A DNA stretch of 38,149 bases from an uncultured Gammaproteobacteria bacterium (GTDB lineage Bacteria; Patescibacteriota; Patescibacteriia; Patescibacteriales; UBA12465), in contig CAYYXD010000002.1 of NCBI GenBank assembly GCA_964475575.1, positions 1 through 38,149 of the forward strand. The letters are read 5' to 3'. Positions 8,767 to 37,575 of this stretch are shown here, piece by piece; position 1 is the stretch's first letter; every line of letters starts with the position of its first letter. Below the pieces are notes generated by a model. That model was not told the DNA's origin, searched no databases, and saw only the letters and a program-made list of their open reading frames with translations. The position numbers and the translations under genes were made by a program.

Positions 8767-8771
8767 TTTAT

Positions 8772-10145: not shown

Positions 10146-10146
10146 T

Positions 10147-15089: not shown

Positions 15090-15111
15090 TACTTACTAAA
15101 AATTATTTATT

Positions 15112-21705: not shown

Positions 21706-22614
21706 ATGAAATCAATTGAGATAAAAATGTATTTATTAATTCAAAAAATTAGAGAAACATTATTTTTTAGTTTTGACCCGACTATTAGAATGAAGATAGG
21801 GAAGAAGAAGTTATTTATTAATTTATCTCATAAACTTCCGATGCATTATTATAGATATAAAAATTATGACAAAGCTTTACCTAGAATTTGTCAACAATTA
21901 AAGAATATAGATAATTATTTAGGAGTGGTTGATATAGGAGCTAATATTGGTGATACAGTATCTTTAATAAATGATGAAGTGAATGGAAAATTTTTATGTA
22001 TAGAAGGAGATGATAAATTTTTTCCGATTTTAGAGAAAAATGTAAAATTAATCAAAGAACCGAGTTTAGTAAAGATAGAAAAATGTTATTGTGGTGATAA
22101 AGTTGATGATTTTTCAGTGATTAGAGAAAATGGAACAGCTAAAATAGTAAAAAATAAATTAAGTAATAATGATTTATTATCAGTGAAAACATTGGATGAT
22201 ATAATTGATAAAAATATGTCTTTTGGTCCTTTTAATGTTTTAAAAACAGATACTGATGGGTTTGAAATTGATGTTTTAAACGGTGGTAAAAATTTTTTAA
22301 AAGAACATAAACCATTAATATATTTTGAATTTACACCTCAATTATACGCTGCTAATAATCAAAATTATAAAGATATTTTTAATTTATTAAAAGAATGTGG
22401 TTATAAAGAATCTTTATTTTATGATAATTTTGGTGAAGTCATAAAAAAGATAAATATTGATGATTATAATGAAATTGAAGATATGGTAAATAGAATAGAT
22501 GAAAAAAATATATATTATTATGATATATTGATATATAATAAAGATAAAAACGGGTATTCCAAAATATTGGAATCCGAATTAAATTTATTTAAAAATAATG
22601 ACAAGCAAAACTAA
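21706..22614 (+). CDS. FkbM family methyltransferase
   Basis: VVDIGANIGDT and LKTDTDGFEIDVLNG motifs typical of the FkbM family. The stop overlaps the start of the next gene by 17 nt. Confidence 0.8.
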   Translation: MKSIEIKMYLLIQKIRETLFFSFDPTIRMKIGKKKLFINLSHKLPMHYYRYKNYDKALPRICQQLKNIDNYLGVVDIGANIGDTVSLINDEVNGKFLCIEGDDKFFPILEKNVKLIKEPSLVKIEKCYCGDKVDDFSVIRENGTAKIVKNKLSNNDLLSVKTLDDIIDKNMSFGPFNVLKTDTDGFEIDVLNGGKNFLKEHKPLIYFEFTPQLYAANNQNYKDIFNLLKECGYKESLFYDNFGEVIKKINIDDYNEIEDMVNRIDEKNIYYYDILIYNKDKNGYSKILESELNLFKNNDKQN

Positions 22615-23632
22615 ATCAATATTGATTATAAAATTGGATGCTATTGGAGATTATATATTATTTAGAAATTTTTTATCAGAAATAAAAAATAATGGTTATA
22701 GTATAACTTTTTTAGGTAATATAAAGATAAAAGATTTAGCAGAGGGTCTTGATAAGACGATTGTTGATAAGTTTATATGGTTTGATGTTGAAAAAAGAAA
22801 AAATATTTTTTATCTTTTCAAGATCTATTTTAAATTAATAAAAAAATTTAGTATTATTATTCAAGCTTCTTTTTCTAGAAGTTCTATTAGTGACTTTTTA
22901 GTTAAAATATCTAAAAGTAAATTAAAAATAGGTTTTAATGGAGATAATAATAATATTTCTGAAAAATATAAAAAAATAACTGATAAGTGGTATGATAAAT
23001 TAGTTGATATTGATAAAAAAAATGTTTTTGAATTTTATAAAAATAGAGAATTTTTTAGTGTTATCTTAAATAGGGAAATACAAATAAAAAAACCATTTAT
23101 TGATAAAACAATTATTAATTTAAATAAAATATCATTACCTGATAATTTTGTGGTATTATTTTCAGGGGCTTCAGCTGATAAAAGAAAATGGTCCAAAGAT
23201 AATTTTATAAAGATTTCTGAATATTTAATTAATAATTATAAATTTAATATTGTTGTTTGTGGCTCAGGTGAAGACAAAATCAGTTTTGAAAATGAAAAAT
23301 TTTTTGATATGACTGGAAAAACAAATTTAATGCAATTAGTATATATAATTTCAAAATCAAAATTAATTATTTTTAATGATACTAGTGGAGCTCATATTGG
23401 TGCAGCTCTTGATATTCCAACTATTGTTTTATCTCAGTTTAATCATTATGGTCGTTTTTTTCCTTATCCCCCTGAAATCAGTGAAAAAAATATTTGTTTA
23501 ACTCCTGATATTTTTAATAATTTAAGTAAAGAAGAATTAATTGATAAGTTTAAGTTTAATTCTGATATTGATATTTCATCGTTAAGTATTGATAAAGTCA
23601 AAAAAACAATTGATTTAATATTGAAAAAATAA
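22598..23632 (+). CDS. Glycosyltransferase family 9 (heptosyltransferase-like)
   Basis: N-terminal ILIIKLDAIGDYILF and C-terminal NDTSGAHIGAALDIPTIVL match GT9 signatures (compare ILIIRLSALGDV and GNDSGPMHLAAALG). Confidence 0.75.
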   Translation: MTSKTKSILIIKLDAIGDYILFRNFLSEIKNNGYSITFLGNIKIKDLAEGLDKTIVDKFIWFDVEKRKNIFYLFKIYFKLIKKFSIIIQASFSRSSISDFLVKISKSKLKIGFNGDNNNISEKYKKITDKWYDKLVDIDKKNVFEFYKNREFFSVILNREIQIKKPFIDKTIINLNKISLPDNFVVLFSGASADKRKWSKDNFIKISEYLINNYKFNIVVCGSGEDKISFENEKFFDMTGKTNLMQLVYIISKSKLIIFNDTSGAHIGAALDIPTIVLSQFNHYGRFFPYPPEISEKNICLTPDIFNNLSKEELIDKFKFNSDIDISSLSIDKVKKTIDLILKK

Positions 23633-23633
23633 T

Positions 23634-24417
23634 ATGAAAATTTCTGTTATTACTGTATGCTTTAATTCTGAAAAAACTATAGCTCGTACTATTGAGAGTG
23701 TTATTAATCAACATTATTCAGATTTAGAATATATAATAATAGATGGTGGTTCAAAAGATAAAACGGTAGAAATTATAAATAAATATAGAAACGAATTAAG
23801 TTATTTTATAAGTGAACCAGATCAAGGAATAAGTGATGCTTTTAATAAAGGAATAAGAGTCGCAACTGGAGATATTATTGGAATTATAAATAGTGATGAT
23901 TGGTATGAGAACGGTATTTTTAAATTAGTTAATGAAATGTTTTTACAAAATAAAGAAATTGATGTTTTAGTAGGGGCTTTACGTTATTGGGATGATAAAA
24001 AAAAACAATTTTATTGTTTATCCTGATAAAAATTATGAAAAATGTATTAATTATAGAATGCCTTGTCTTAATCATCCAACTGTTTTTGCGAAAGCTGAAG
24101 TTTATCGTTCCGTAGGATTATTTGATTTAAAATATCGTTATGCCATGGATTATGATTTTTTCGTTAGAGTATTTGAAGATGGAAAGAAAATAGTTTTTAT
24201 TGATAAGGTTTTATCTAATATGAGTCTTTCGGGGGCTTCTGATAAAAATGCTAGAAAAGCTTATTTAGAAACATTTCATATAGCTCCTAATAAAATAAAG
24301 TCTTTTATCTTTTTTATATATTCAGTTATAAAGTATTATATTCGTCTTTTTCTTATTTTTATTGGTTTAGATAAGTTGTTATTAAAAATAAGAAAGATAA
24401 AATATTTGAATAAATAA
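23634..24417 (+). pseudogene. Glycosyltransferase family 2, split by a frameshift in an A9 homopolymer
   Basis: ORF 23634-24026 carries the GT2 N-half (ISVITVCFNSEKTI, IIIDGGSKD, INSDD). ORF 23992-24417, in the +1 frame, carries the GT2 C-half (HPTVFAKAEVYRSVGLFDLKYRYAMDYDFFVRV). The two frames meet at A9 (23997-24005), and deleting one A fuses them. Confidence 0.75.
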
Positions 24418-24427
24418 TTTTAAAATA

Positions 24428-25516
24428 ATGAAAATAGGAATAAACTTAATTCAATATATAGATATTCAAGGAATAGAAGTTTTTACCAAAAATTTATTAA
24501 TGGATTTAGTTAAACAAGGATCAGAACATGAGTTTCTTTTTTTTGTTAATCAAGAATCGGCTAAAATATTTGATATTAAAGAACATAATGTCAAGCTTAT
24601 TATTAAGCATTTTAAAAAAATATCTAAAATAAGATTAATATTATATCAACAATTTGGTTTAATTAGAAAATTAAATAAAGAAAAAATTGATTTATTATAT
24701 TGTCCTTCGGTGGCTATACCAATTTTTTATAAAAAGAAAATAGTTACTGTTCATGATTGCGCTTCTTTAAGATTTAAAGACGAAGTTTCTTTAATATCTA
24801 AACTTTATTTGAAATTATCTTTTTGGTCAGTAAAAAATTTTTCTTTAAAAATTGTTACGGTTTCTGAATTTTCTAAATTAGAAATAAATAAATTATTAAA
24901 AATTCCACTAAATAAAATAATTATAATTTCTGAAGGTATTCCGGAATTGGCTAGTGTTAATGAAGATGTTATTAATAAAATTTTAAATAAATTTAATTTA
25001 ATAAATAAAAATTATTTCTTCTATATTGGTAATCAACGTCCAAGAAAGAATATCCAAAATTTATTAAAGGCTTGGAATGATTTTTCTAGTAAAAAAAGTA
25101 ATTATTATTTAATTATGGCTGGTAAGATTAATAATTTAGAAAATTTTAAGATTAATAATATTTATCCCATTGGAATTATTAGTGAGGAAGAAAAAACTTC
25201 TTTGTATAAAATGTCTAAAGCTTTAATTTTTCCATCTTTATATGAGGGTTTCGGTCTACCGGTTTTAGAAGCTCAAAGTCTTGGAGTTCCAGTTATAACT
25301 TCAAATATCAGTTCTTTACCAGAAATCTCAGGGAAAGGAGCAATTTTAGTTGATCCTGGAGACTATAAAGATATTTCGTTGGGTCTAGAAAAAATTAGTA
25401 ATCTAAATTTTAATAGAGAAGAATTAATAAATAAAGGTTATGAAAATTTAAAAAGATTTTCCTGGAGTAAAACAGTCTCAATTTTATTAAAAATTATAAA
25501 AAAATATGATATTTAA
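24428..25516 (+). CDS. Glycosyltransferase family 4 (GT-B fold)
   Basis: E-x7-E region PSLYEGFGLPVLEAQSLGVPVITSNISSLPEI. Confidence 0.85.
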   Translation: MKIGINLIQYIDIQGIEVFTKNLLMDLVKQGSEHEFLFFVNQESAKIFDIKEHNVKLIIKHFKKISKIRLILYQQFGLIRKLNKEKIDLLYCPSVAIPIFYKKKIVTVHDCASLRFKDEVSLISKLYLKLSFWSVKNFSLKIVTVSEFSKLEINKLLKIPLNKIIIISEGIPELASVNEDVINKILNKFNLINKNYFFYIGNQRPRKNIQNLLKAWNDFSSKKSNYYLIMAGKINNLENFKINNIYPIGIISEEEKTSLYKMSKALIFPSLYEGFGLPVLEAQSLGVPVITSNISSLPEISGKGAILVDPGDYKDISLGLEKISNLNFNREELINKGYENLKRFSWSKTVSILLKIIKKYDI

Positions 25517-26642
25517 AAAATACTATAGTTTAATAATAAAAATATTATCATATCTAAAAATAGATTTATTTAATTTAAAGTATATTGTAATAAAATTATT
25601 TAAGTTTATTTTTTCTATTATTTTATTACCAATTGAAATATTGGGTGACATGATTTTTTCTTATAAAAGATTATTTAGTTTTAATATTTCCGATCCTAAA
25701 AAAATATTAATAATAAAAATTGATCAAATGGGTGATGTTCTTTTTTCTACTATGCTTTTGCCTTTAATAAAAGAAAAATATCCTCAAAGTGAAATAGATT
25801 ATGTAATTAATAAAAAGGCAGAACAAATTTTAATAGCTAATCCACATGTTAATAATATTTATTATTGGCAGAGTTTTATTTTAAATAATGTTCCAGGACG
25901 AGGAAAATTTTCTTTTATTTCTTGGAAAAATAATTTATCAACTTGGAGAATGTTAAAACAACAAAAATATGATATTATTATAAATGCTAGATCTTTTATC
26001 CCTAGTGGTAATTTATCTTGGAAATTTTTAAACCCCAAAAAACTTATAGCTTTTAATATTAGTCAGCAAAGCTTTTTAGCTGATAATATTGTTTCATATA
26101 ATCTATATGCTGAAGAATGGCAAAATTATTTAAATCTTTTAAAACCTTTAGGTATAAACAAAATAGAAGGGGAACCACGATCTGAATTTTATAATATTTC
26201 AGATTGTAATATTGAGTCTGAAAATTTGGCCATTATTTCTCCAATTAGTTTTAATTCAGAAAGAAGTTGGTCTTTGGAAAAATGGATTAAAGCTGTTAAA
26301 ATTTTAATTAAAAAAAACTATCTAGTAATTTTAATAGGAACAAGAGAACAAAAAGAATGTTTAGAAAAAATAAAAGGTGATACTAATAGTTTAATATTTA
26401 TAGATTCTATTCCTAAATTAGCTGATTTAATAAAAAAAGCTGATTTATTTTTAGGAGTAGAGTCTTTTCCAGCTCATTTAGCTCTTACTTTTAAGATTAA
26501 ATTATTTTCCGTAGTTAATACTAAATTATTTTATGTTTCTGGAAAAAGTAAGCATAAGATAATTGATGGTCGTTCTATGTTATCACAATTTTCAAATGTT
26601 AAAATAATTGATTTAAATGAAAATCCTGAAGATGTTTTATAA
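25506..26642 (+). CDS. Glycosyltransferase family 9-like protein (second copy, divergent)
   Basis: ILIIKIDQMGDVLFSTMLLPLIKEKYP is the GT9 N-terminal signature. The C-terminal GVESFPAHLALTF resembles the GT9 donor-binding block. It has an extra N-terminal hydrophobic segment. Confidence 0.65.
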   Translation: MIFKKYYSLIIKILSYLKIDLFNLKYIVIKLFKFIFSIILLPIEILGDMIFSYKRLFSFNISDPKKILIIKIDQMGDVLFSTMLLPLIKEKYPQSEIDYVINKKAEQILIANPHVNNIYYWQSFILNNVPGRGKFSFISWKNNLSTWRMLKQQKYDIIINARSFIPSGNLSWKFLNPKKLIAFNISQQSFLADNIVSYNLYAEEWQNYLNLLKPLGINKIEGEPRSEFYNISDCNIESENLAIISPISFNSERSWSLEKWIKAVKILIKKNYLVILIGTREQKECLEKIKGDTNSLIFIDSIPKLADLIKKADLFLGVESFPAHLALTFKIKLFSVVNTKLFYVSGKSKHKIIDGRSMLSQFSNVKIIDLNENPEDVL

Positions 26643-26670
26643 TTTCTAATATAAATTAATTCACAATACT

Positions 26671-27411
26671 ATGTTTGGAAAAATTTCTGGATCTTCAAGT
26701 AGATTAAACTCTGTTGATCATAACGAAACTTATGGCCGATATTTATTGGAGAGTATTATAAAGGATAGAAAAATAAAAACAGGAGTTGATCTTGGTTGTG
26801 GTGGAGGTGACGATTTGGCAATTATTAGAAAATATAATCCAAAAGCAGAATTATTTGGAATTGATTTTAATTTACAAAATAGAAATAAACTTAAGAACTT
26901 AAATATTAATCCTTTTGTTATTAATATTGAGAAAGATAAATTACCCTTTACTGATGAGTCAATTGATTTTATTATAGCTAATCAAGTACTTGAACATACT
27001 AAAGAAATTTTTTGGATAAATCATGAAGTTTTTAGATGTTTGAAAAAGGGAGGAATATTTTTTTTGGGTGTTCCTAATGTTTTATCGTTTCATAATCGTT
27101 TATTAATGTTATGTGGTTATCATCCAACTTGTTGTAAAAACATATCAGCTCATGTTCGTATTTTTTCTAAAAAAGATGTTAATTTATTTTATAAATCAAT
27201 AGGAAATAATTTTTGTAAAATAGATAAAGTTTATGGTTCGCAATTTTATCCTTTTCCAAAAAAAGTAGCTAGATTTTTATCCAAAGTTTTTCCTTCTTTG
27301 GCAGTAGCTAATTTTTATGTAATAATAAAAACTGATGATTATAATGGAGAATTTTTAAAATGGCCTAAAAAAAATTCTTTAGAAAGTAATTATTTTTTAG
27401 GTTTAAATTAA
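26671..27411 (+). CDS. Class I SAM-dependent methyltransferase
   Basis: Motif I VDLGCGGGDD, then DFIIANQVLEHT (Methyltransf_11-like). Confidence 0.8.
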   Translation: MFGKISGSSSRLNSVDHNETYGRYLLESIIKDRKIKTGVDLGCGGGDDLAIIRKYNPKAELFGIDFNLQNRNKLKNLNINPFVINIEKDKLPFTDESIDFIIANQVLEHTKEIFWINHEVFRCLKKGGIFFLGVPNVLSFHNRLLMLCGYHPTCCKNISAHVRIFSKKDVNLFYKSIGNNFCKIDKVYGSQFYPFPKKVARFLSKVFPSLAVANFYVIIKTDDYNGEFLKWPKKNSLESNYFLGLN

Positions 27412-27414
27412 ACA

Positions 27415-28704
27415 ATGAATACAGAAAATAAAACAATAAAAAAAATAATTCCTGATAAATGGTTATGGATATTTAAGCATAACGGTTTTCGACGTTATTT
27501 TATAAATACTGGTTGGATGTTTCTAGGACAAATATTTTCTTTAATAGTTTCTTTTTTTATTGGAGTTTGGATAGCTAGATATTTAGGTCCAGAAAATTAT
27601 GGAATACTTAATTATGCCGTAGCCTTTGTGGGTTTATTTGGTTTTATCGCTTCTTTGGGAATAGATAGTATTTTAAATAGGGAATTGATAAAAACCCCAG
27701 AAAAAAGAGATGTATTATTGGGTACCGCTTTTAAATTAAAAGTAGTAGGTGGAATAGCAGCTTTAGCCTTGGCTGTTATAAGTATATTAATGTCTCAGAC
27801 TACTTTATTGATTCAATTCTTAGTTATAATCTTTTCTTTTAATTTCATTTTACAAGCTATAAATGTTATAAGTATATATTTTCAATCAAAAGTTGAATCA
27901 AAAAATAATGTTAAAGTTTCAATTATTTCAACATTAATTTCTTCTGTTTTGAAGGTTGGAGTAATATTATTAGATAAGGGAGTAATTTGGATTATGTTAG
28001 TTTATATTTTAGATTTTGTTTGGCAGTGGATAAATTTTGTTTATGTATACAAAAGACAAGGATTAAAAATAAGAGATTGGAAATTTGATAATGATTTAGC
28101 TAAGAAAATATTAAAAAACTCGTGGCCTTTAATATTAGCTCAAGCAGCTGGGTATATTTATCTTAAAGTAGATCAAGTTATAATTGGATTAATGTTGGGT
28201 AATTACGAAGTTGGTCTTTATGCTGTAGCTGTAAAAGTTACTGAAATTTGGTATTTTATTCCTAGTATTATTTGTAGTTCTTTATTTCCAGCTATTATTA
28301 ATGCCAAATTAACTGATGTTAAAGTTTATAAGAAAAGATTGAGTAATTTATATGTTTTAATGTTTATTCTTTCTTTAATAATAGCTATTACTATAACCTT
28401 TTTAGCTAAACCCATTATGACGGTTTTATTTGGTAATAATTATTTAGAATCTGTTGCTATATTAAAAATATATATTTGGTCAAGTGTTGGTTTGTTTTTA
28501 ACTGTAGCCGTTAATCAGTATTTAATATCAGAAAACTCGGTTAAAACTATTTTTTGGTTTAATTTTTTATCAATGATAATTAATATTGGTTTGAATGTGT
28601 GGCTTATTCCTCTTATTGGATTATTGGGGGCCGCTTGGGCCACATTGATTTCTTATTTTGTTATTCCGATTTCAGTTCTTATTCGGGAAAAATTTTTTAG
28701 ATAA
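27415..28704 (+). CDS. Oligosaccharide flippase (Wzx-like, MOP superfamily)
   Basis: 429 aa with about 12 TM segments. The N-terminal GWMFLGQIFSLIVSFFIGVWIARYLGPENYG is typical of the Polysacc_synt family. Confidence 0.8.
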   Translation: MNTENKTIKKIIPDKWLWIFKHNGFRRYFINTGWMFLGQIFSLIVSFFIGVWIARYLGPENYGILNYAVAFVGLFGFIASLGIDSILNRELIKTPEKRDVLLGTAFKLKVVGGIAALALAVISILMSQTTLLIQFLVIIFSFNFILQAINVISIYFQSKVESKNNVKVSIISTLISSVLKVGVILLDKGVIWIMLVYILDFVWQWINFVYVYKRQGLKIRDWKFDNDLAKKILKNSWPLILAQAAGYIYLKVDQVIIGLMLGNYEVGLYAVAVKVTEIWYFIPSIICSSLFPAIINAKLTDVKVYKKRLSNLYVLMFILSLIIAITITFLAKPIMTVLFGNNYLESVAILKIYIWSSVGLFLTVAVNQYLISENSVKTIFWFNFLSMIINIGLNVWLIPLIGLLGAAWATLISYFVIPISVLIREKFFR

Positions 28705-29526
28705 AGGACGAATAATGTAAGAATAGAAGGATCTAAATGTTTTCATTAAGAAACAAGTTATATAACCATAATGTTTTTTAAAGTAATAAGCTCTTGATTT
28801 ATAAAATACTTCTAAAAAATTATCATCAAACTTAACACTTTGTCCTCCTAAATGAACTAAACTAATATTTAAAGCTATGGCTGTTAGGTATTTTTTTGAA
28901 TAAGCTCTTTGACAAATATCGGTATCTTCAAAATAAAGAAAAAAATTCTCATCCCAACCATTTATTTCATCAAAAACATTTTTTCTTATAACTAAAGAAC
29001 AGCCAGAGACCCAATCAATAATAAATAATTTTTCTTTATTTTTTGGTATTAATTCTTTCTCATTAACTTTAAAGGCTAAAGATATTAATCCCAAAAGAGT
29101 CGGAAATTTTCCTAAAGCTGTTTTTTGATTTTCTCCCGATGGATTTTTTACTAATGGAGAAAGTATTCCTATTTTTTCATTGTTAATAAATATTTCTTTT
29201 ATAGTGGGTAAAATATTTTCTGTTAATATAGTATCGTTATTTAAAAAATATAAATATTTTCCCGTAGCTAATTTAGCTCCTTGATTATTAGCCTTAGCAA
29301 AACCTAAATCTTGTTTATTTTCTATAAAATGAGAAATACGATCATCAAATTTATTTTTTATTTTTTGAATACTGTCATATCCCGAATTATTATCAATAAT
29401 AATAATCTCAAAACTTTCATTTTTGCAGTATTTAAAAATTGATTCTAAACATTGAATGGTTAAATCTGGGGTTTTATAGTTTATTATAATAAAAGAAAAG
29501 TCCATATTCAATTTAAATTCCTTCAT
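28672..29526 (-). CDS. Glycosyltransferase family 2
   Basis: FSFIIINYKTPDLTIQCLESI, IIIDNNS, FLNNDT (DxD-like) and CSLVIRKNVFDEINGWDENFFLYFEDTDICQR. Its 3' end overlaps the convergent flippase gene by 33 nt. Confidence 0.85.
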   Translation of the reverse strand: MKEFKLNMDFSFIIINYKTPDLTIQCLESIFKYCKNESFEIIIIDNNSGYDSIQKIKNKFDDRISHFIENKQDLGFAKANNQGAKLATGKYLYFLNNDTILTENILPTIKEIFINNEKIGILSPLVKNPSGENQKTALGKFPTLLGLISLAFKVNEKELIPKNKEKLFIIDWVSGCSLVIRKNVFDEINGWDENFFLYFEDTDICQRAYSKKYLTAIALNISLVHLGGQSVKFDDNFLEVFYKSRAYYFKKHYGYITCFLMKTFRSFYSYIIRPLSKKFFPNKN

Positions 29527-30889
29527 TACTTAAGGTGGTTTTAATAGTTTTTAGAAATATACTAATATCAAGATAAATTGATCTATTTTTTATATAGTAT
29601 AAATCATATTGCAGTTTTTTATAAGTATCCCTTACTGATGCTGAATGATACTCTCCTGAAATTTGATCCCAACCAGTTATACCGGGTTTAATTAAATTTC
29701 TTATTCCATAAAAAGGTATATTTTTTGATAATTCTTTTATTAATTCTGGTCTTTCTGGTCGGGGTCCGACAAAAGCCATATCACCTTTTATAACATTAAT
29801 TAATTGAGGTATTTCATCTATTCTGATTTGACGCATAAATTTACCAAATTTAGTTATTCGTTTATCATTTTTTTCAGTCATTTTTCTATTATTATTTTCT
29901 TCATACATAGTTCTGAATTTATAAAAATTAAAATGCTGGCAATCTTTTCCGGCTCTGACTTGTTTAAAAATTATTGGTCCACGACTTTCAATTTTTATAA
30001 TTAAAACTATAATGGGCCAAAAGGGAAGAGTAAATAATAATATCACCGAAGCTATAAGCAAATCATACAATCTTTTTATTCGTTCATAATTTTTTTTATT
30101 AGCTAAATCTAAATTTTCTAAAAACCAACCTTTATTCAAAATTTCAATTGGAATTTGTCCACTTATTTCTTCATAAAATTTTATTAAATTACGATAACTA
30201 ATACCAGTTGGTAATAAATTAAATAAAGTTTTTTGCAATTCTTTCATTTGACTAATATCTTTTTCCAAAATAACTATATTTATTTTATGCTCTTTTATGG
30301 CTCGAGATAATTGATTTATATCTTCAACAATAGCTAAATCATAATTTTCAGCTATATCCACTAAAACATTATTTCTTTCACTAACAATAAATTTTATATT
30401 ATAACCTAATTGTTTATTCTTTTTTATAGCTTGAATTGTTTTTAAAATAATTTCATTATATCCAATAATAGCAATATTTATAGTAGATAAATATTTTTTG
30501 TTGAGTAGCAAAAAGAGTAATCGCCAAGTTAAGAATAAAAGATAATATATTATAGAAAATATTAATAATATGGTTTTAGGATTAATAGTTGGACTTTGGA
30601 TTATATAGAAAAATATTATAGAAATTAGAAAGGCTATTAAAACACTTTTAACACTTTGTTCAAATAATTTGCTTTGGTTGATAATTTTCCTAAAATCATA
30701 TAAACTATTTATATAGAAAATAAGTATCCATAAAACAAAAACTGGGATAAAAAATTTTAAATTTTGTTGCCAAATTTCATTATTTGGTATGGATAAATAT
30801 CTTAGTATTAAAGCTGTTCTTAAGGAAATAATTAATAATATTATATCAATAAGTAATAGGAAAAATTGTTTAAATTTATTATTATTCAT
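29513..30889 (-). CDS. Polyprenyl-phosphate glycosyl-phosphotransferase (WbaP/large PGT-type bacterial sugar transferase)
   Basis: N-terminal TM bundle and a central Rossmann-like region. The C-terminal catalytic domain reads KRLYDLLIASVILLFTLPFWPIIVLIIKIESRGPIIFKQVRAGK...FYKFRTM...DEIPQLINVIKGDMAFVGPRPERP. Confidence 0.9.
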   Translation of the reverse strand: MNNNKFKQFFLLLIDIILLIISLRTALILRYLSIPNNEIWQQNLKFFIPVFVLWILIFYINSLYDFRKIINQSKLFEQSVKSVLIAFLISIIFFYIIQSPTINPKTILLIFSIIYYLLFLTWRLLFLLLNKKYLSTINIAIIGYNEIILKTIQAIKKNKQLGYNIKFIVSERNNVLVDIAENYDLAIVEDINQLSRAIKEHKINIVILEKDISQMKELQKTLFNLLPTGISYRNLIKFYEEISGQIPIEILNKGWFLENLDLANKKNYERIKRLYDLLIASVILLFTLPFWPIIVLIIKIESRGPIIFKQVRAGKDCQHFNFYKFRTMYEENNNRKMTEKNDKRITKFGKFMRQIRIDEIPQLINVIKGDMAFVGPRPERPELIKELSKNIPFYGIRNLIKPGITGWDQISGEYHSASVRDTYKKLQYDLYYIKNRSIYLDISIFLKTIKTTLSNEGI

Positions 30890-30951
30890 ATTAAATATTT
30901 GGTTTATATTTATATACTTATATTATAACAATTAATCATTAAAAATCAATT

Positions 30952-33219
30952 ATGTCAGAAAAAATGTATTTGAATATTTTGAAAGGTGCAATTTTAACAT
31001 CATTTGTTTTTTTGTTCTTTGTTTTTTCACCTTTTTTATTTCCTTTTATTACTTCCAAACAAATATTTTTTAATATTTTTATAGAAGTATTATTGTTATT
31101 TTGGTTGATATTTATATACAAATATCCAAAATATCGTCCCCAAAAATCATTTTTAACTTGGGGAATAGTAGCCTATTTTATTAGTATTGTTTTATCTTTA
31201 GTAATTAGTGTTGATTTTAATCTTAGTTTTTGGGGTGATACTGAAAGAATGTTAGGCTTTTTTCATTTGTTTCATTTCTTGTTATTTTATTTTATTATTA
31301 TTTCTGTTTTTAGATCAAGAAAGGATTACAATCTTTTATTTTATGGAATAATATTGTCATCTATTATTATAGCAGTCATTGGGTTTATAAAAGGAGACAT
31401 GAATAGTACTATTGGTAATCGAGCTTATGTAGCTGCCATAATGTTATTTGGTATATTTTTAGAGGCTTTTTTCTTTTTTAAAGAAAAAAATTGGTGGAAG
31501 AAAATTATTTTTATTCCTGCTTTTATTATAAGTATTATTGGTCTATTTAAATCTGATATTTCTGGTTCTCAAGCTGGTTTAATAGCTGGTATATTTATTT
31601 CTATATTAATATTAATAGTAGTCTCTAAAAACAAAAAAACAAAGATTATAGGGTTATCTGTTTTATTGTTTTTGGTTACCGCTTTAATTTTATTATTTAT
31701 TTTTAGATCTCATCCGGTTTTTAATAACACCTATTTAGGTAAAGCTGTTCGTGATTTTTCTACAGAAAATGCAACCTTAAATACTCGTTTAATTTCTTAT
31801 CGGGCAGCTGGTAGATATTTGATTGATAATCCTATAGTTATGATTTTTGGGGTTGGACATGGAAATTATGCGACTATTTTTGATAAATACTTTGATCCCA
31901 AGTTTTATGATTATGATCGTGTTTCAACTTATTTTGATCGAGCTCATTGTACTATAATAGATGTTATAACCACTACTGGAATTATTGGTTTATTATCTTA
32001 TTTATCTATTTTCTTTTTTATTTTCTATAATCTTATTAAGTCATATCTTGCTAATAAAAAAAATAATGAGGAAGGCCTAAATAGAAACGAATTAGCTATT
32101 TTTTCTGGTTTAATTGTTGCTTATTTTGTTCAAAATTTAGCGGTTTTTGATTCCTTTGCTACTTATTTATATTTTATGATGATTTTAGGATTTGTTTATT
32201 TTATTGGCTTTAATAATAAATCAGAAATAGAATCATCAGAATCTAAAAATTCTTCTAAATTATTAGCCTATATTATCATTCCGGTATCTTTAGTATTTTC
32301 TATTGCTGGTATGGTTAATAATATAAATTCAGCTAAAATGGTAAAAGAAGTCATTGATGCTTATAGCTTTTCCTACTCTCAGGGATTAGTAAAAGGAATA
32401 GAAAAATATGAAGTTGTTTTTAAAAAATATCATACCGGCTTAGAACGTGATGCTAGAGAATCATATATTAATTTAATTTTAGAATCTTCTGATCAAATAT
32501 CACAATATACAAATAAACAAGAAATTGAAAAAATTTTGTCTTTAGGAGTAGAAGTGGCCGAAGCTAATGAAAAATATAATCCGAATGATAATTTGATTTT
32601 AACTAGATTAGCTAAAATGTATAATTTAATGGGTTCTTTTTATTTTAATCAAAAAGATACCGAACAAGGAAATTATTATAGTAATATGGCTTTTAATACT
32701 TTAGATAGAGCTATTAATGTTAGTCCGAGACGTATTCCAATATATTTAACTAAGGCTGGACTATTAATGAATTTTGGTAATACCGAAGAAGCCATTGAAA
32801 CCATTGAATATGCTAAAAGTTTAAATAGCAATATTTCGGAATCTTATTGTCAATTAGCTAATGTTTACTTTGTTATAAAAGATGATGATAAATTTCTTTC
32901 CGAATTAGATTCTTGTGGAAAAAAAGGTGGATTTTCTTTAATGAATTGGGAAAACTTTTTTAATTCAGTAGAAAGTTATTATTATGATAATAAAGATTAT
33001 GAACATTTAATTAAATTTTATGAATTATTATTAAAATCACAAATACCAGATGATAATAAAGTTTCAATTTTATCAGCTTTGGCTACTGTTTATTTTGAAA
33101 ATGGAAATTATGAAAAAGCTAAAGAGACAGCTTTGAAGATAAGTGAAATTAATAGTACCTATAAATCAGATGTTGATAATTTTTTAAAGACTATTGAAGA
33201 AGCTGAAAATAAAAAATAA
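30952..33219 (+). CDS. Wzy_C (O-antigen ligase-like) polytopic membrane domain fused to C-terminal TPR repeats
   Basis: The first ~440 aa are polytopic, with SGSQAGLIAG and GVGHGNYATIF blocks. The C-terminal ~300 aa contain TPR-like repeats (NLMGSFYFNQKDTEQGNYYSNMAFNTLDRAINVSP..., LATVYFENGNYEKAKETALKISEIN). Confidence 0.7.
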   Translation: MSEKMYLNILKGAILTSFVFLFFVFSPFLFPFITSKQIFFNIFIEVLLLFWLIFIYKYPKYRPQKSFLTWGIVAYFISIVLSLVISVDFNLSFWGDTERMLGFFHLFHFLLFYFIIISVFRSRKDYNLLFYGIILSSIIIAVIGFIKGDMNSTIGNRAYVAAIMLFGIFLEAFFFFKEKNWWKKIIFIPAFIISIIGLFKSDISGSQAGLIAGIFISILILIVVSKNKKTKIIGLSVLLFLVTALILLFIFRSHPVFNNTYLGKAVRDFSTENATLNTRLISYRAAGRYLIDNPIVMIFGVGHGNYATIFDKYFDPKFYDYDRVSTYFDRAHCTIIDVITTTGIIGLLSYLSIFFFIFYNLIKSYLANKKNNEEGLNRNELAIFSGLIVAYFVQNLAVFDSFATYLYFMMILGFVYFIGFNNKSEIESSESKNSSKLLAYIIIPVSLVFSIAGMVNNINSAKMVKEVIDAYSFSYSQGLVKGIEKYEVVFKKYHTGLERDARESYINLILESSDQISQYTNKQEIEKILSLGVEVAEANEKYNPNDNLILTRLAKMYNLMGSFYFNQKDTEQGNYYSNMAFNTLDRAINVSPRRIPIYLTKAGLLMNFGNTEEAIETIEYAKSLNSNISESYCQLANVYFVIKDDDKFLSELDSCGKKGGFSLMNWENFFNSVESYYYDNKDYEHLIKFYELLLKSQIPDDNKVSILSALATVYFENGNYEKAKETALKISEINSTYKSDVDNFLKTIEEAENKK

Positions 33220-33230
33220 TTTTTTAAGAC

Positions 33231-34451
33231 ATGAAAATATTACAAGTTAATAAATTTAATTATATTAGAGGAGGAGCTGAAAAATATTTTTTAGAAATAG
33301 GTGAAGAATTAAAAAAGGCTGGACATCAGGTAGCTTTCTTTTCAATGAAACATCCAAAGAATTTACCTAGTCCTTGGGAAAAGTATTTTGTTTCTCGTAT
33401 TAGTTTTAATGAAGGAACTTGGCGGGATAGTTTATTAGCTCCAGGTAGAATAATATATAGTTTTGAAGCTAAACGTAAATTTTCTAAATTAGTAGAAGAT
33501 TTTAAACCAGATATAATACATATTCATAATATTTATCATCAAATATCTCCATCAATTTTGTCAGTAGCTATAAAGAAAAAGATTCCAGTAGTTATGCATC
33601 TTCATGATTATAAATTGGTTTGTCCTAATTATCAATTATTTGTTAATAATAAAATATGTTATCGTTGTTGGCCTAAAAAATATAGTCAATGTTTTAAAAA
33701 TTGTTGTTTTAAAAATTCTGTAATTAAAAGTTTATTAGCTACTATTGAAATGTGGTTTCATCATAAGGTTTTGAAGATTTATGAAAAAAGTATTTCTTGT
33801 TTTATAGCACCAAGTAAATTTATGAAAGAAACTCTAATTAAATTTAATTGGCCAGAAGATAAAATAAAAGTTATATATAATTTTTCAGAAAAGATGGAAA
33901 ATAATTTTGTTGATAAATTAGAAAATTATGGTTTATACTATGGTCGTTTATCAAAGGAGAAGGGAATAGATATATTATTACGAGCAATAAAAAAATCAAA
34001 CAATAATTTTACACTTAAAATAGTTGGTTCGGGACCAGAAGAAAAAAATTTAAAAGAATTATCTAATACTTTAGGATTAAATAAACAAGTTGAATTTTTA
34101 GGTTTTAAATCAGGAAATGATTTATATGATATTGTAAAAAAAGCTAAGGCAATATTTTTACCATCTATTTGGAATGAAAATATGCCTTTTGTATTATTGG
34201 AAGCTTTGTCATTAAAAAAAGTTGTTGTGGTTTCTAGAACTGGTGGATTACCAGAGTTAATAACTAATAAAGATACTGGATTCATATTTGAAAATGGTAA
34301 TGAAGAAGAATTAGCTGATATAATAAAAAATTTAAATCAATATGATTTAAAAAAAATAGGTGAAAAAGCTCATGAAATTAGTCGAGATCTTAATGTAAAT
34401 AACCATTTAGTAAAAATATTGGAAATATATAATAAGTTATTAAAAAACTAA
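33231..34451 (+). CDS. Glycosyltransferase family 4 (GT-B fold)
   Basis: N-terminal RGGAEKYF. The E-x7-E region is PSIWNENMPFVLLEALSLKKVVVVSRTGGLPELI. Confidence 0.85.
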   Translation: MKILQVNKFNYIRGGAEKYFLEIGEELKKAGHQVAFFSMKHPKNLPSPWEKYFVSRISFNEGTWRDSLLAPGRIIYSFEAKRKFSKLVEDFKPDIIHIHNIYHQISPSILSVAIKKKIPVVMHLHDYKLVCPNYQLFVNNKICYRCWPKKYSQCFKNCCFKNSVIKSLLATIEMWFHHKVLKIYEKSISCFIAPSKFMKETLIKFNWPEDKIKVIYNFSEKMENNFVDKLENYGLYYGRLSKEKGIDILLRAIKKSNNNFTLKIVGSGPEEKNLKELSNTLGLNKQVEFLGFKSGNDLYDIVKKAKAIFLPSIWNENMPFVLLEALSLKKVVVVSRTGGLPELITNKDTGFIFENGNEEELADIIKNLNQYDLKKIGEKAHEISRDLNVNNHLVKILEIYNKLLKN

Positions 34452-34496
34452 TAAAAATATCTAAAAAGTGCTTTTTATCTTTATTTGTCAAGGTAC

Positions 34497-34525
34497 TTGA
34501 CATTTTTTTTTAAATATGTTAAAAT
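34497..34525 (+). promoter_or_regulatory. Sigma70-type promoter upstream of the Wzz-like gene
   Basis: TTGACA (34497-34502), a 17-nt spacer, then TAAAAT (34520-34525) with an extended -10 TG at 34517-34518. The -35 box lies inside the palindrome TGTCAAGGTACTTGACA (34486-34502). Confidence 0.55.
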
Positions 34526-34595
34526 TAATCGTTGTATAAATAAAATTTTTGTGTTTTATTTTATAAATTAAAAATTTTAGATAACAAATAATAAT

Positions 34596-35414
34596 ATGGA
34601 TTTAATCGGTTTATTAAAACAAAAACGTCAAACAATAATATCAGTTTTTTTAATTTTATTAGTTATAGGTTTACTTTTCTTGTTAACTCAGAATTTTAAA
34701 TATGGAACAAAATCTAAGATATTAGTAATTCAAGAGGGAGCTGGTAAAGTTGATCCTTATTCTGTCTCTCGATCAGTAGAATATTTATCTGATTTATTTT
34801 CTAAAGTTATTTATTCTAATGCTTTTTTTGAATCAGTTATGAACTCTGATTTTGACATTGATAAGAGTTATTTTGGTGAAGACTATAATGATATGATGAA
34901 GAATTGGAAAAAAACAGTTTCTACTAAAACTTTAGAAGATTCTGGAATTATGGTTATTAGTGTTTATCATGAAGATAATTATCAAGCTACTCAAATTGCT
35001 TTAGCCGTTAATCATGTTTTAATCAATGAACATCAAAATTATCATGGTTTAGGCAATTCAGTAAAACTTAGTATTATTGATCAACCAGTAACTTCTAATT
35101 ATCCAATTAAACCAAATTTAGTTTATTATTTTATAGTACTTATTTCAGTTAGTTTATTTATTAGTTTAATATATATTTATCTTTTTCCAGAAAGAAAGTA
35201 TGACATTAATTTTTTTGGAGAACAAAAACCAAAAAAGATAATACTTGAAAAAGAGATTAAACAGAATATTAGTAATAATATATCAAAGGTAGAATTAAAA
35301 AATAAAGCAAGTGAAAATAATAATATAGAAGATGTAGAAATAGAAGATGTAAAAGAAACTATTAACTATAATGAAATAAGAAAATCGGGTGATATCAGTA
35401 ATTTATTTGAGTAA
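34596..35414 (+). CDS. Wzz-like polysaccharide co-polymerase (chain-length determinant) protein
   Basis: N-terminal TM (IISVFLILLVIGLLFLL) and C-proximal TM (LVYYFIVLISVSLFISLIYIYLF) flank a ~130-aa loop, which is the PCP topology. There is no kinase domain. The position next to Wzx/Wzy-type genes supports the call. Confidence 0.55.
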   Translation: MDLIGLLKQKRQTIISVFLILLVIGLLFLLTQNFKYGTKSKILVIQEGAGKVDPYSVSRSVEYLSDLFSKVIYSNAFFESVMNSDFDIDKSYFGEDYNDMMKNWKKTVSTKTLEDSGIMVISVYHEDNYQATQIALAVNHVLINEHQNYHGLGNSVKLSIIDQPVTSNYPIKPNLVYYFIVLISVSLFISLIYIYLFPERKYDINFFGEQKPKKIILEKEIKQNISNNISKVELKNKASENNNIEDVEIEDVKETINYNEIRKSGDISNLFE

Positions 35415-35438
35415 TATTATTTAATTAATAATATAAAA

Positions 35439-35517
35439 GTTCTTTGACAAATATTCCTTCTTAATGATTTATATTTAAAAGGTCTTTAAATAGAGATTTT
35501 TTAAATATAAATCATTA
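35439..35517 (+). promoter_or_regulatory. Conserved 79-nt leader element, copy 1 (long hairpin)
   Basis: Perfect 19-bp inverted repeat at 35462-35480 / 35499-35517 around the spacer GGTCTTTAAATAGAGATT. 73 of 79 nt are identical to 36531-36609. It lies 43 nt upstream of ATG 35560. Confidence 0.5.
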
Positions 35518-35559
35518 AAGTTAAAAAAATTATAAAAAATAACAAGGAGGAAATAAAAA

Positions 35560-36423
35560 ATGTCAAAAATAATGAGAATATTAGTAGTGGTATTATTTGT
35601 ATTATTATGTAATGTCAAAGCTCAGGATGATCCAGAAAGATTTAACATTAGCTATGGGATGCATAATACCATAGGTGACCAAAGGATGTTATCCGGAGGT
35701 GACTCAATCGTCAAGGTTGGATCTGGAGTTAAACACTCCGTTTCCGGTGAAGTCTTCTTAGGTAATCGCATTTATCGACCAGGAATTTATTCCCAATATA
35801 GTAATTCCAATTTTTTGACTCAACAATTTGAAGCTCAAAAATCTTGGAACTTTTCAGTGGGAATTATTTCCCAAATAAACTTGGGACCGGTGGAAGCAAA
35901 AATTTATACAGGTTATTTCCATAAAGATCTAAAAATTTCTGGGTACGATTCTGAATCCAAAAAGTTTTCGGATTCGTCAAAGATTAATGGTCTTGATCTG
36001 GGTGTTAATTTAATTATTGCCCAACAAGATATCAACTTGTTTCCGAAGATTGAACTTTTTGGTAACGGAAAGTTTCAATTCTCGAGAAATATGTCGGGGA
36101 AGATAGTTCCAAAAGGTTATTCTTTTGGAGCTAATGTAGAAATTTATCGAATTTCTTTCTTTGATTATTATATATCTCCTTTTTTGGGAGTATACAAGAT
36201 GGAAGAAATGAGTAGCTATAAGAATTTGATTTATAAACTTGGTGTTTCTCTCAACAATAACATTGTTAGAAGCGATATTGCTAAGGTGGGAGTATTCCTA
36301 TCTTGGAATAATGAAGTTTATAATTACCAAAGTTCTGACTACAATTATTCGGTAAAAAATGCTAATATAGGAATTTTCCTACAATTTAGTCCTACAGGCC
36401 TATTTTCGCAATATGTGAGATAA
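35560..36423 (+). CDS. Secreted beta-strand-rich protein, paralog A (OMP-like beta-barrel candidate, unknown family)
   Basis: Strong SD AAGGAGG at 35544-35550. Signal peptide MSKIMRILVVVLFVLLCNVKA-QD. Alternating hydrophobic/polar strands run throughout. It shares blocks with 36639-37523 (INGLDLGVNL..FPKIELF, FGANVEIYRI..DYYISP). Confidence 0.7.
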   Translation: MSKIMRILVVVLFVLLCNVKAQDDPERFNISYGMHNTIGDQRMLSGGDSIVKVGSGVKHSVSGEVFLGNRIYRPGIYSQYSNSNFLTQQFEAQKSWNFSVGIISQINLGPVEAKIYTGYFHKDLKISGYDSESKKFSDSSKINGLDLGVNLIIAQQDINLFPKIELFGNGKFQFSRNMSGKIVPKGYSFGANVEIYRISFFDYYISPFLGVYKMEEMSSYKNLIYKLGVSLNNNIVRSDIAKVGVFLSWNNEVYNYQSSDYNYSVKNANIGIFLQFSPTGLFSQYVR

Positions 36424-36441
36424 ATCTTACATGAAATTTAT

Positions 36442-36480
36442 AAGGATTCTGTTTTTCAATAAAAACTAGAATCCTTTTTT
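36442..36480 (+). terminator. Rho-independent terminator after paralog A
   Basis: AAGGATTCT (36442-36450) pairs with AGAATCCTT (36468-36476). An inner helix GTTTTT/AAAAAC extends the stem. A T-run follows. Confidence 0.8.
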
Positions 36481-36495
36481 ATTTTTGTCAAGGTA

Positions 36496-36524
36496 TTGAC
36501 AAGAATAATCCTTTATGATACAAT
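36496..36524 (+). promoter_or_regulatory. Consensus sigma70-type promoter of paralog B
   Basis: TTGACA (36496-36501), a 17-nt spacer, then TACAAT (36519-36524) with an extended -10 TG at 36516-36517. The -35 box lies inside the palindrome TGTCAAGGTATTGACA (36486-36501). The predicted TSS is near 36531. Confidence 0.65.
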
Positions 36525-36530
36525 GTAAAT

Positions 36531-36609
36531 GTTCTTTAATAAACATTCCTTGCTAATGATTTATATCTAAAAGGTCTTTAAATAGAGATTTTTTAAATAT
36601 AAATCATTA
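36531..36609 (+). promoter_or_regulatory. Conserved 79-nt leader element, copy 2 (long hairpin)
   Basis: The 19-nt arms at 36554-36572 / 36591-36609 have one C-A mismatch. The spacer is identical to copy 1. The element begins at the predicted TSS. Confidence 0.5.
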
Positions 36610-36638
36610 GTTAACAAAATAATCAAAAAAAAGGAATC

Positions 36639-37523
36639 ATGAAAACAAAGACATTAGTAGCATTAGCAATAATATTGACAATTGCAACAACCGTAGAAGG
36701 CGGAAGAAGGTATAATAGTAGAAAAATAAAGACTGGGGAAAGATTCTCTCTGAGTTATGACATTCAGAGCTTGAATATGAAAAGCAGTAAAGATTTAATC
36801 CATCATCTTGATGGAGAGGTGTTCTTTTTACCCACAACTAATAAAGTAAATGTGGGAGCCTTCTTGGAGGGCCATAAAGGAGGAGTGTTCGTAGCTAATA
36901 ATAGTGAAGATCAAAAGTATATATCTTTTGGTCCGAGCTTGAAGTTTCAATCTGAAAAGTTTGAAACTACATTAAAAGCCGGATACTTTCTCCAAAAGAA
37001 AGAGATATTTTACAAAGGTGATGTCATAGAAACCAACAATTTAAATGGTCTTGATCTTGGAGTAAATATCAATTTACTCCAAAACGATTTCAAATTCGTT
37101 CCGAAAATAGAATTATTTGTGGAAACAAAGATTGAATTTAGTAAAAAATACTTTCAATTTAATAATGAAGATGAAGGTATTAATGAAATTAAAAGTATCG
37201 TAACCACAAGTATCTGCAACTATCAATTTGGAGTAAATGTTCATTTGTATAGGATTAATTTAGGAGATTATTATATGTCTCCTATGATCGGACTGGAAAA
37301 ATCCGAATCCTTTACTAGAAAAAACTTATTCCAAATAAAGGCCGGAATGAGTTTAAATAATGGAGTAACAACAAGCAATATTTTTCAAGTTGGAATCTCA
37401 TTATCATTCTATAATAATGGCTACTATCAAACAATTGAGGGTGAAAGCACTATCAGCCCTTGTATGTTTGGAGTGTATATGAAGATCAATCCTTCGGGAT
37501 TTTTTATCCATAGGGTAAAATAA
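36639..37523 (+). CDS. Secreted beta-strand-rich protein, paralog B (OMP-like beta-barrel candidate, unknown family)
   Basis: Signal-like N-terminus MKTKTLVALAIILTIATTVEG. Blocks shared with paralog A include ERFSLSY, DGEVFF, LNGLDLGVNI..VPKIELF, FGVNVHLYRI..DYYMSP, and SLNN...VGISLSF. Confidence 0.7.
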   Translation: MKTKTLVALAIILTIATTVEGGRRYNSRKIKTGERFSLSYDIQSLNMKSSKDLIHHLDGEVFFLPTTNKVNVGAFLEGHKGGVFVANNSEDQKYISFGPSLKFQSEKFETTLKAGYFLQKKEIFYKGDVIETNNLNGLDLGVNINLLQNDFKFVPKIELFVETKIEFSKKYFQFNNEDEGINEIKSIVTTSICNYQFGVNVHLYRINLGDYYMSPMIGLEKSESFTRKNLFQIKAGMSLNNGVTTSNIFQVGISLSFYNNGYYQTIEGESTISPCMFGVYMKINPSGFFIHRVK

Positions 37524-37549
37524 AAGGAATCACAATGATTCCTTTTTTT
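37522..37549. terminator. Bidirectional terminator between paralog B and rpmA
   Basis: AAGGAATC (37524-37531) pairs with GATTCCTT (37537-37544) with a 5-nt loop. T7 follows on the + strand, and a T-rich run follows on the - strand. Confidence 0.75.
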
Positions 37550-37575
37550 AATATGTATAGATGTATAAGGTTTAT

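Follow-up and report, generated by a model that had tools for sequence, protein, structure and literature searches.

The window considered here, a stretch of 38,149 nucleotides, is one whole contig (C2) of its host genome (GenBank assembly GCA_964475575.1; labels such as C1 or C25 denote other contigs of the same genome). Between positions 21706 and 35414 it carries an island of glycan-assembly genes that an earlier annotation from the letters alone, here called the sequence-only reading, took for one complete Wzx/Wzy/Wzz pathway. The locus raises the question of whether these genes do form a single pathway, and of what they would make, on which carrier lipid and for which acceptor. Comparison with relatives showed that 21706-33219 is a hypervariable surface-glycan locus of this Falkowbacteria-type lineage, in which a divergent, conserved gene pair lies beside a replaceable cassette of approximately 8 kb. 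The pair encodes a priming phosphoglycosyl transferase (PGT) and a membrane protein with Wzy_C and TPR domains (Wzy_C-TPR). Judged by gene order and orthology, the supposed complete pathway is best read as a juxtaposition of two modules.

A replaceable cassette beside two conserved genes

The comparison set consisted of 80 loci around relatives of the island PGT, matched against every island gene; L016 to L100 are labels of relatives' loci, while L013 is a near-identical, independent assembly from another sample. Only the PGT and Wzy_C-TPR persisted in these loci, the cassette genes being replaced. Identity of the PGT was 94% in L013 and 61-79% in other loci of the genus, and that of Wzy_C-TPR was 90% in L013 and then 44-67% across the genus. 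The replaced block lies between conserved secA/pspC/liaF genes and the PGT. When the 116 cassette open reading frames (ORFs) from 13 genus genomes were clustered at >=40% identity, they formed 74 families, 57 of which were singletons, and the cassette in the window had at most one family (a Wzx type) in common with any other cassette. This is the serotype-like hypervariability for which the sequence-only reading had suggested a comparison across genomes.

A Pfam tally of the 107 cassette ORFs of 12 relatives gave 30 GT4 and 9 GT2 glycosyltransferases, 10 Wzx flippases, 10 nucleoside diphosphate (NDP)-sugar epimerase/dehydratases and approximately 14 class I plus 6 FkbM methyltransferases, so that methyltransferases made up about 20 of the 107. 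The slot directly after the PGT was occupied by an NDP-sugar epimerase/dehydratase in 7 of the 12 relatives, and by a GT2 gene (GT2 b) here. The Wzx flippases were the only proteins with multiple transmembrane (TM) helices in the genus cassettes, where no other polymerase-like membrane protein was found. In the window, the cassette comprises Wzx, two GT9, one GT4 and two GT2 genes (one of them split) and two methyltransferase genes. The features of the island, with their Pfam matches, are as follows:

21706-22614, + strand: FkbM methyltransferase, first cassette gene (PF05050, E = 6.3e-15)
22598-23632, + strand: glycosyltransferase GT9 a (PF01075, E = 2.2e-15)
23634-24026 and 23992-24417, + strand: glycosyltransferase GT2 a, split by a frameshift (PF00535, E = 1.7e-28, N-terminal half)
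24428-25516, + strand: glycosyltransferase GT4 a (PF00534, E = 2.9e-28)
25506-26642, + strand: glycosyltransferase GT9 b (PF01075, E = 3.6e-11)
26671-27411, + strand: class I S-adenosylmethionine (SAM) methyltransferase (PF08241, E = 2e-14)
27415-28704, + strand: Wzx-type (MOP) flippase (PF01943, Polysacc_synt, E = 6.5e-28; PF13440, E = 1.4e-23)
28672-29526, - strand: glycosyltransferase GT2 b (PF00535, E = 1.1e-18)
29513-30889, - strand: large polyprenyl-phosphate hexose-1-phosphate transferase, the priming PGT (PF02397, Bac_transf, E = 1.2e-61; CoA_binding_3)
30952-33219, + strand: Wzy_C-TPR, 755 aa with 13 TM helices (PF04932, E = 3.9e-14; TPR)
33231-34451, + strand: glycosyltransferase GT4 b (PF00534, E = 5.6e-39)
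34596-35414, + strand: short polysaccharide co-polymerase (PCP), Wzz/CpsC-like, with two TM helices (Pfam Wzz, E = 6e-4, below the cut-off)

These are 12 genes (13 ORFs) with no space for another, rather than the 14 first counted, and six glycosyltransferases with two GT4, rather than seven with three. Searches with hidden Markov models (HMMs) upheld the earlier Wzx, Wzy_C and PGT assignments. The matches to PF05050 and PF08241 likewise agreed with the two methyltransferases that had been named, and the Pfam matches and the crossing of frames described below with the two GT9 and two GT2 genes, one frameshifted. The priming transferase had been called WbaP-like; its identity as a PGT stood (PF02397, and NCBIfam TIGR03025 at 356.7 bits, above the cut-off of 295.55), but the WcaJ-like score exceeded the WbaP-like one. 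Scans of the window confirmed that it contains neither a nucleotide-sugar gene nor uppS.

Among the genus loci, the FkbM gene had no orthologue (blastp, E <= 1e-10) and one weak match of 29% identity (L016:18609-19421), while GT9 a had orthologues in L026 and L064 only, and GT9 b in L032 only (41%). Wzx, which has at least nine hydrophobic helices, occurred in relatives as two allelic types, of approximately 50% and 24% identity. The frames of the split GT2 gene cross at a run of nine adenines (A9, 23997-24005). Intact orthologues have 250-255 aa, and the two parts match their residues 1-123 and 140-224; because these portions are consecutive, the parts were interpreted as one frameshifted gene. 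The frameshift may be an assembly error, phase variation or the mark of a pseudogene; a homopolymer tract within a glycosyltransferase gene recalls the phase-variable pgl genes. Apart from this gene, all 11 in the island are intact, and they lie so close together that starts and stops overlap. A role for the GT9 proteins as heptosyltransferases was judged unlikely and dropped: no gmhA was found in the genome, there is no lipopolysaccharide (LPS), and their best equivalog scores in NCBIfam (41 and 79 bits) fell far under the cut-offs for LPS heptosyltransferases (134-569). The two are the sole GT9 genes of the genome.

In island windows between 21 and 26 kb, G+C content was 21-22%, lower than the 27-30% of the flank upstream. 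A search for tRNA genes, as marks of integration at the borders of the island, found none in the window. A promoter scan of the island returned 131 sites where 124.6 were expected, and was uninformative at 22% G+C.

The host genome (641 kb in 52 contigs, 26% G+C, estimated to be 88.7% complete) is that of a reduced cell of the Candidate Phyla Radiation (CPR), or Falkowbacteria, type without lipid A, as the sequence-only reading had supposed it might be; whole-genome searches for LpxC and for Omp85/BamA found neither. The alternative it had named, a diderm host with lipid A and core genes, was not what was found, and a standard diderm O-antigen cluster is ruled out. The locus nevertheless resembles the Wzx/Wzy loci for O-antigen and capsule (Salmonella rfb, Streptococcus pneumoniae cps) in that a PGT would prime a polyprenyl-linked oligosaccharide for Wzx, and in that a swappable, low-G+C cassette of glycosyltransferase and modification genes occupies a fixed site beside conserved anchors. 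It differs from them in that Wzy_C is conserved, TPR-bearing and not serotype-specific, and in lacking lipid A, outer-membrane export genes, UppS and nucleotide-sugar genes within the cassette. This anatomy, comprising a fixed site, two anchors and an exchanged cassette rich in methyltransferases, provides a framework for strain typing, and for seeking the acceptor (pilin, surface protein or wall) in a phylum without a characterised glycoconjugate.

The Wzy_C-TPR enzyme and its putative acceptor

An AlphaFold2 (AF2) model of Wzy_C-TPR, built from an alignment of 27 orthologues (pLDDT 86.7, pTM 0.82), began with nine TM helices; a structured loop (251-333) separates these from four further ones, and a TPR solenoid follows from approximately residue 480 (~480-755). 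Five basic loops (58-66, 119-125, 176-183, 225-231 and 366-378) all fell on one side, by sequence and in the model, and the N-terminus was therefore placed inside, as in WaaL; since the number of TM helices is odd, owing to the 13th, the TPR domain would lie outside, beside the catalytic loop. Residues R279, D329-R330-x-H332, Q394, N395 and D400 were invariant in the 27 orthologues. When a profile of the membrane half was compared with the PDB, the only membrane protein matched was WaaL (7tpg, E = 1.1e-11), to whose conserved Arg and His R279 and H332 align; no solved PglL or other O-oligosaccharyltransferase (O-OTase) was matched in this search. A fold search with the full model was swamped by TPR proteins and was silent on the membrane domain. 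Wzy_C-TPR is therefore like the WaaL of Cupriavidus metallidurans (PDB 7TPG) in the region of the fold, in the large outer loop that follows TM9, and in the Arg and His that both conserve, and unlike it in having an additional TM13 and TPR domain and no lipid A-core acceptor (no LpxC). No characterised Wzy_C-TPR enzyme was found in a literature search.

Wzy polymerases of the serotype type are usually specific to their repeat unit and vary with serotype. The retention of Wzy_C-TPR amid swapped sugar genes fits such an enzyme poorly, as far as sequence comparison can tell, and fits one that would recognise the carrier and the reducing end that the PGT, itself just as conserved, determines. Because the enzyme persists through exchange of the sugar genes, because the cassettes encode no other polymerase-like protein, and because pilin genes follow it in most relatives, a ligase or O-OTase with a pilin or other surface protein as its putative acceptor is favoured over a repeat-unit polymerase.

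The pilin evidence came from gene order. In 9 of 13 genus loci with downstream sequence, a type IV pilin-like gene is the next gene after Wzy_C-TPR on the same strand (in L020, the second gene), and one locus had three pilin genes in tandem. These pilins (169-719 aa) carry a class III signal, [AG]FTL[IV]E, and match N_methyl/T2SSG in Pfam; their C-terminal domains are lectin-like (Laminin_G_3), HINT, InlB-repeat or Fib_succ_major. Among the acceptors that the sequence-only reading had listed, a pilin thus gained support from synteny in relatives, with none following the enzyme in the window; an LCP ligase gene was also found, on C6.

The O-OTases TfpO/PilO (Pseudomonas aeruginosa 1244), PglL (Neisseria) and PglS/TfpM (Acinetobacter/Moraxellaceae) are, like Wzy_C-TPR, membrane enzymes with Wzy_C, and pilin adjacency as seen in 9 of 13 genus loci would suit an enzyme of their kind; the enzyme here would, as they do, take glycans from a Wzx pathway linked to undecaprenyl diphosphate (Und-PP), and a relaxed glycan specificity of their kind would explain its conservation across cassettes. 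It is unlike them in its 13th TM helix, its outward TPR domain of approximately 280 aa, the order of enzyme then pilin, and the lack of a pilin neighbour in the window and of a sequence match to a solved O-OTase. In the slg clusters for S-layer O-glycosylation of Geobacillus stearothermophilus and Paenibacillus alvei (O-OTases WsaB/WsfB), a monoderm cell with rhamnose genes and methyltransferases transfers a PGT-primed glycan to a surface protein by a Wzy_C-type enzyme. A monoderm-type cell, a predicted PGT-primed, lipid-linked glycan, rhamnose genes, methyltransferases and a Wzy_C-type transferase are found here too; the differences are that slg glycans are exported by an ABC transporter rather than Wzx, and that no S-layer gene was identified beside this locus. 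For the pili of Saccharibacteria, pilin glycosylation has been predicted only, and its testing called for (PMC11623550).

Several observations weigh against a protein acceptor, or against transfer by this enzyme at all. Sequence and fold fail to separate a ligase, an O-OTase and a polymerase, and NCBIfam matches were weak. The genome encodes five proteins with a Wzy_C domain (C7:17491-19437, C1:9607-10911, C11:17760-19175, and 8772-10145 and 30952-33219 in the window), and the four paralogues could act as polymerase or ligase in trans. No pilin gene follows Wzy_C-TPR in the window or in L013, where GT4 b, the PCP and two further genes fill the slot. Adjacency to a pilin was seen in a single genus, and 12 more distant loci that encode the enzyme showed none; moreover, the loci are kin, so that 9 of 13 does not represent nine independent events and may reflect a single ancestral one. 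Finally, the LCP ligase on C6 and the conserved PCP fit a polymerised, wall-linked polysaccharide, which is the main rival to the favoured protein- or ligase-type acceptor and is considered with the PCP below.

A related reading retains the ligase and changes its substrate: Wzy_C-TPR would be an analogue of WaaL without lipid A, transferring the glycan to a glycolipid, a lipoteichoic-acid-like anchor or peptidoglycan, with the TPR domain docked on the wall or on partner proteins. That WaaL, with its conserved Arg and His, is the closest solved relative agrees with this; conservation alongside the PGT suits recognition of the reducing end and carrier, and the absence of the lipid A pathway would require some other acceptor. 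Yet no candidate pathway for a lipid acceptor was identified, TPR domains usually bind proteins, and the pilin synteny of relatives indicates proteins, so that a non-protein acceptor was considered unlikely.

Some further observations concern the pilins and paralogues. The genome contains at least 19 pilin-like genes, whose N-termini are nearly identical (AFTLIELLVVIAIIGIL). Such genes stand at contig ends of C24, C27, C33, C39, C40 and C44, and the window itself begins inside one (2-607, with a Fib_succ_major C-terminal domain); pilin repeats appear to break the assembly. In relatives, two genes come after the pilin genes downstream of Wzy_C-TPR, one for a membrane protein of 314 aa and the other for a protein of 1327 aa with LTD, Laminin_G and C92-peptidase domains; here, this pair is found at C14:1-4985, preceded by two small ORFs and a gene for a typA-like GTPase. 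The Wzy_C paralogue on C7 (648 aa, approximately 14 TM helices) has secDF on one side and abuts a prepilin peptidase gene (A24) on the other, with ftsA and ftsZ beyond; this neighbourhood also counts in favour of the pilin link.

The co-polymerase and a second module

The claim of a single complete Wzx/Wzy/Wzz pathway foundered on the last two genes of the island, since GT4 b and the Wzz-like PCP gene are orthologous to members of a separate DUF4012-Wzy_C module. The contig of HGW-Falkowbacteria-1 that carries its PCP copy (L100) has the order DUF4012, Wzy_C (460 aa), GT4, GT4, GHL15, a 456 aa gene, PCP, a 296 aa gene, a 94 aa gene and L27. In the window, the other half of this module lies far upstream:

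6829-11262, + strand: DUF4012, unfused Wzy_C (457 aa) and GT4 genes (Pfam), the other half of the split module

These genes correspond to the first three of L100 in the same order, with 51-59% identity. Later members of L100 have counterparts in 33231-37851, where GT4 b matched the fourth gene (63%), and the PCP (55%) and L27 (71%) also matched. The module is therefore split here by approximately 22 kb (11272-33219), and the inserted stretch holds the entire variable locus together with holB, frr, rseP, hpf, secA, Bro genes, pspC and liaF. The junction between Wzy_C-TPR and GT4 b recurs in L013; as that genome was assembled independently from a different sample, a chimeric join is unlikely. 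GT4 b and the PCP gene are separated by a hairpin resembling a terminator (34486-34502) and by a promoter-like site close to consensus (34497-34525); the palindrome TGTCAAGGTACTTGACA is followed by a run of T and overlaps the -35 box of this extended -10 site. The pair was the only standout of the island promoter scan.

The Wzz-like identity of the PCP was upheld, its own Pfam score being short of the cut-off (PF02706, 20.5 bits against a gathering cut-off of 25.5). Several homologues of 40-70% identity carry PF02706/PF13807, and there was a weak match to the CpsC family (NCBIfam TIGR01006). The AF2 model (pLDDT 79.8) placed an alpha/beta domain between TM helices 11-30 and 175-196, and all top matches to it by Foldseek were KpsE or Wzc (E = 2e-7, target-normalised TM-score up to 0.65). 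The protein resembles the short PCP-2b proteins of the CpsC/CapA type from Gram-positive capsule loci in its pair of TM helices, its small outer domain of alpha/beta type and the proline-rich stretch that precedes TM2; unlike these, it has no adjacent CpsD-type tyrosine kinase and sits in a DUF4012-Wzy_C module.

The most serious competitor to transfer by a ligase or O-OTase enters with this protein. In a Wzy-dependent capsule or wall polysaccharide of Gram-positive type, Wzy_C-TPR would be the polymerase, the PCP would set chain length and the LCP protein on C6 would attach the product to peptidoglycan. All parts resembling CpsE, Wzx, Wzy, CpsC and CpsA exist in the genome, the PCP gene lies two genes downstream of Wzy_C-TPR, and homologues of the PCP are named 'capsular polysaccharide biosynthesis protein' by JGI. 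Against this, Wzy_C-TPR is orthologous (44-67%) across wholly different cassettes, unlike a Wzy that varies with serotype; in relatives, the PCP and GT4 b sit in the DUF4012-Wzy_C module, more than 8 kb from the PGT locus; the PCP gene has its own promoter-like site past the terminator-like hairpin; and no bacterial tyrosine kinase (BY-kinase) partner was seen beside it. A polysaccharide of this kind is thus possible, though not the probable product. More generally, neighbouring glycan genes in small, rearranged genomes may belong to different systems, and should be read with caution.

In this genome, contig C30 carries the GHL15 gene of the module. No Pfam match was obtained for the two genes that follow the PCP (35560-37523); L100 has its 296 aa gene in the equivalent position, while in L013 the first of the two was matched at 76% and the second at only 28%.

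Supply of carrier lipid and sugars

The carrier lipid is the point of greatest interest. Comparisons were made within a genus set of 19 genomes (this one and 18 others, including 6-contig and 1-contig assemblies), a set of 81 genomes of the GTDB family and an order set of 12 other families. The genome-wide search for uppS that the sequence-only reading had called for found none: PF01255 had no match, and an order-specific HMM run over six frames of the genome gave a best E of 0.38. UppS was found in 0 of the 19 genus genomes and was missing from 77 of 81 in the family, including some rated 100% complete, with strong hits in 3 of 81; it was present in 10 of the 12 other families. No trans-prenyl synthase of the farnesyl diphosphate (FPP)-synthase type (PF00348) was found in this genome, nor a DgkA-type kinase (PF01219); each occurred in 1 of the 18 other genus genomes, and in 5 and 10, respectively, of the 12 other families.

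Enzymes that depend on the carrier were retained. MraY and a WecA-like protein of approximately 530 aa occurred in this genome, in 17 of the 18 others of the genus and in all 12 other families. Large PGTs were present in all 18 (as two copies in 16) and all 12, with two copies here, and BacA was present here, in all 18 and in 8 of the 12. Because UppS, trans-prenyl synthase and DgkA-type kinase are all lacking, the carrier would have to come from outside. The simplest reading of this gene content is that the cells obtain polyprenyl phosphate or diphosphate externally, presumably from a host, and recycle it; a non-homologous polyprenyl synthase may instead be responsible. It counts against this that the genome is incomplete, so that absences from it alone are weak, and the claim for UppS rests on the pattern across the family. 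Dependence on host lipids is the prevailing view of CPR bacteria (Patescibacteria). A literature search found no report of UppS loss in Patescibacteria.

Sugar precursors had also been left open by the sequence-only reading, with the host as a possible source, and here the genome provided for itself. Genes for rmlA (334 bits, just under the cut-off of 360.65), rmlB (478 bits, above its cut-off) and a weak rmlC-like cupin occur together on C25, with an rmlD-like gene on C28, galU on C38 (322 bits, at the cut-off), a galE-like epimerase gene on C9 and another NDP-sugar epimerase/dehydratase gene on C3.

A mechanism can be proposed from these observations. Gene identities, folds, the pattern of conservation, gene order and gene content were established by the analysis, whereas the order of steps, the acceptor, the size of the glycan and the origin of the carrier in a host are inferred. 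The conserved PGT would prime a polyprenyl-phosphate carrier with hexose-1-phosphate at the inner membrane face, after which the five glycosyltransferases and two methyltransferases of the cassette would extend and methylate a short oligosaccharide, one glycosyltransferase perhaps being off or phase-variable at the A9 run. Wzx would move the product outward, and the conserved WaaL-fold Wzy_C enzyme, with its TPR domain facing outward, would transfer it to the acceptor. The genes on other contigs would supply dTDP-rhamnose and UDP-Glc/Gal, and the carrier lipid would be taken from outside, presumably from the host, and recycled by BacA. GT4 b and the PCP belong to the second conserved system, of DUF4012-Wzy_C, which a 22 kb rearrangement has probably brought alongside. 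Taken whole, from priming by the PGT through to transfer by Wzy_C-TPR on an external carrier, this proposal was given an even chance of being correct.

It is also conceivable, at the extreme, that the locus is a decaying or inactive relic that makes no product in this strain; the frameshifted GT2 gene and the lack of UppS would suit such a fate. However, the remaining 11 genes are intact and closely packed, a lone frameshift in a homopolymer may be an assembly error or phase variation, and the presence of PGT, Wzy_C-TPR, MraY and BacA throughout the genus argues that carrier-dependent pathways are in use. A relic was therefore regarded as very improbable.

A bolder proposition is that the family has lost every known route to the carrier (UppS family-wide; trans-prenyl synthase and DgkA-type kinase as far as the sampled genus shows), and that its members are auxotrophs for undecaprenyl phosphate (Und-P), which they draw from a host membrane, spending the borrowed carrier on strain-specific, methylated glycans that a WaaL-fold, TPR-bearing O-OTase attaches to type IV pili or surface proteins. 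This is advanced tentatively, and as a whole is rather doubtful. If true, carrier auxotrophs would still run peptidoglycan synthesis and at least three further pathways dependent on polyprenyl phosphate, uptake of undecaprenyl phosphate would bind them to the host by a concrete biochemical need, and variation of the glycan would give a diversity of surfaces that serves host recognition or defence against phages. That a family without UppS keeps MraY, two PGTs, a WecA-like protein and BacA, while sister families keep UppS, would mark the carrier as a specific dependency and a possible handle for cultivation.

Other features of the carrier-related genes were recorded. In the window, frr (RRF) is separated by 22 nt from rseP (14535-16245), with no uppS or cdsA between. 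This abutment was considered as a scar of local uppS deletion and rejected, since in the sister families that keep uppS the gene lies elsewhere, and not in an frr-uppS-cdsA-rseP arrangement. The second protein of the MraY/WecA family (PF00953; C33:59-1666) has 535 aa and a fused C-terminal QueH (epoxyqueuosine reductase) domain; across the genus, open frames containing the PF00953 match span 467-557 aa. The second large PGT (C13:16520-19090; 479 aa, TIGR03025 at 376 bits) adjoins a 373 aa gene with a GT4-like N-terminus, is kept in the genus and would prime a separate pathway. Lastly, in the SecA gene upstream of the variable locus (16599-19325), the DEAD-like domain covered residues 5-409, compared with a profile of 290 positions.

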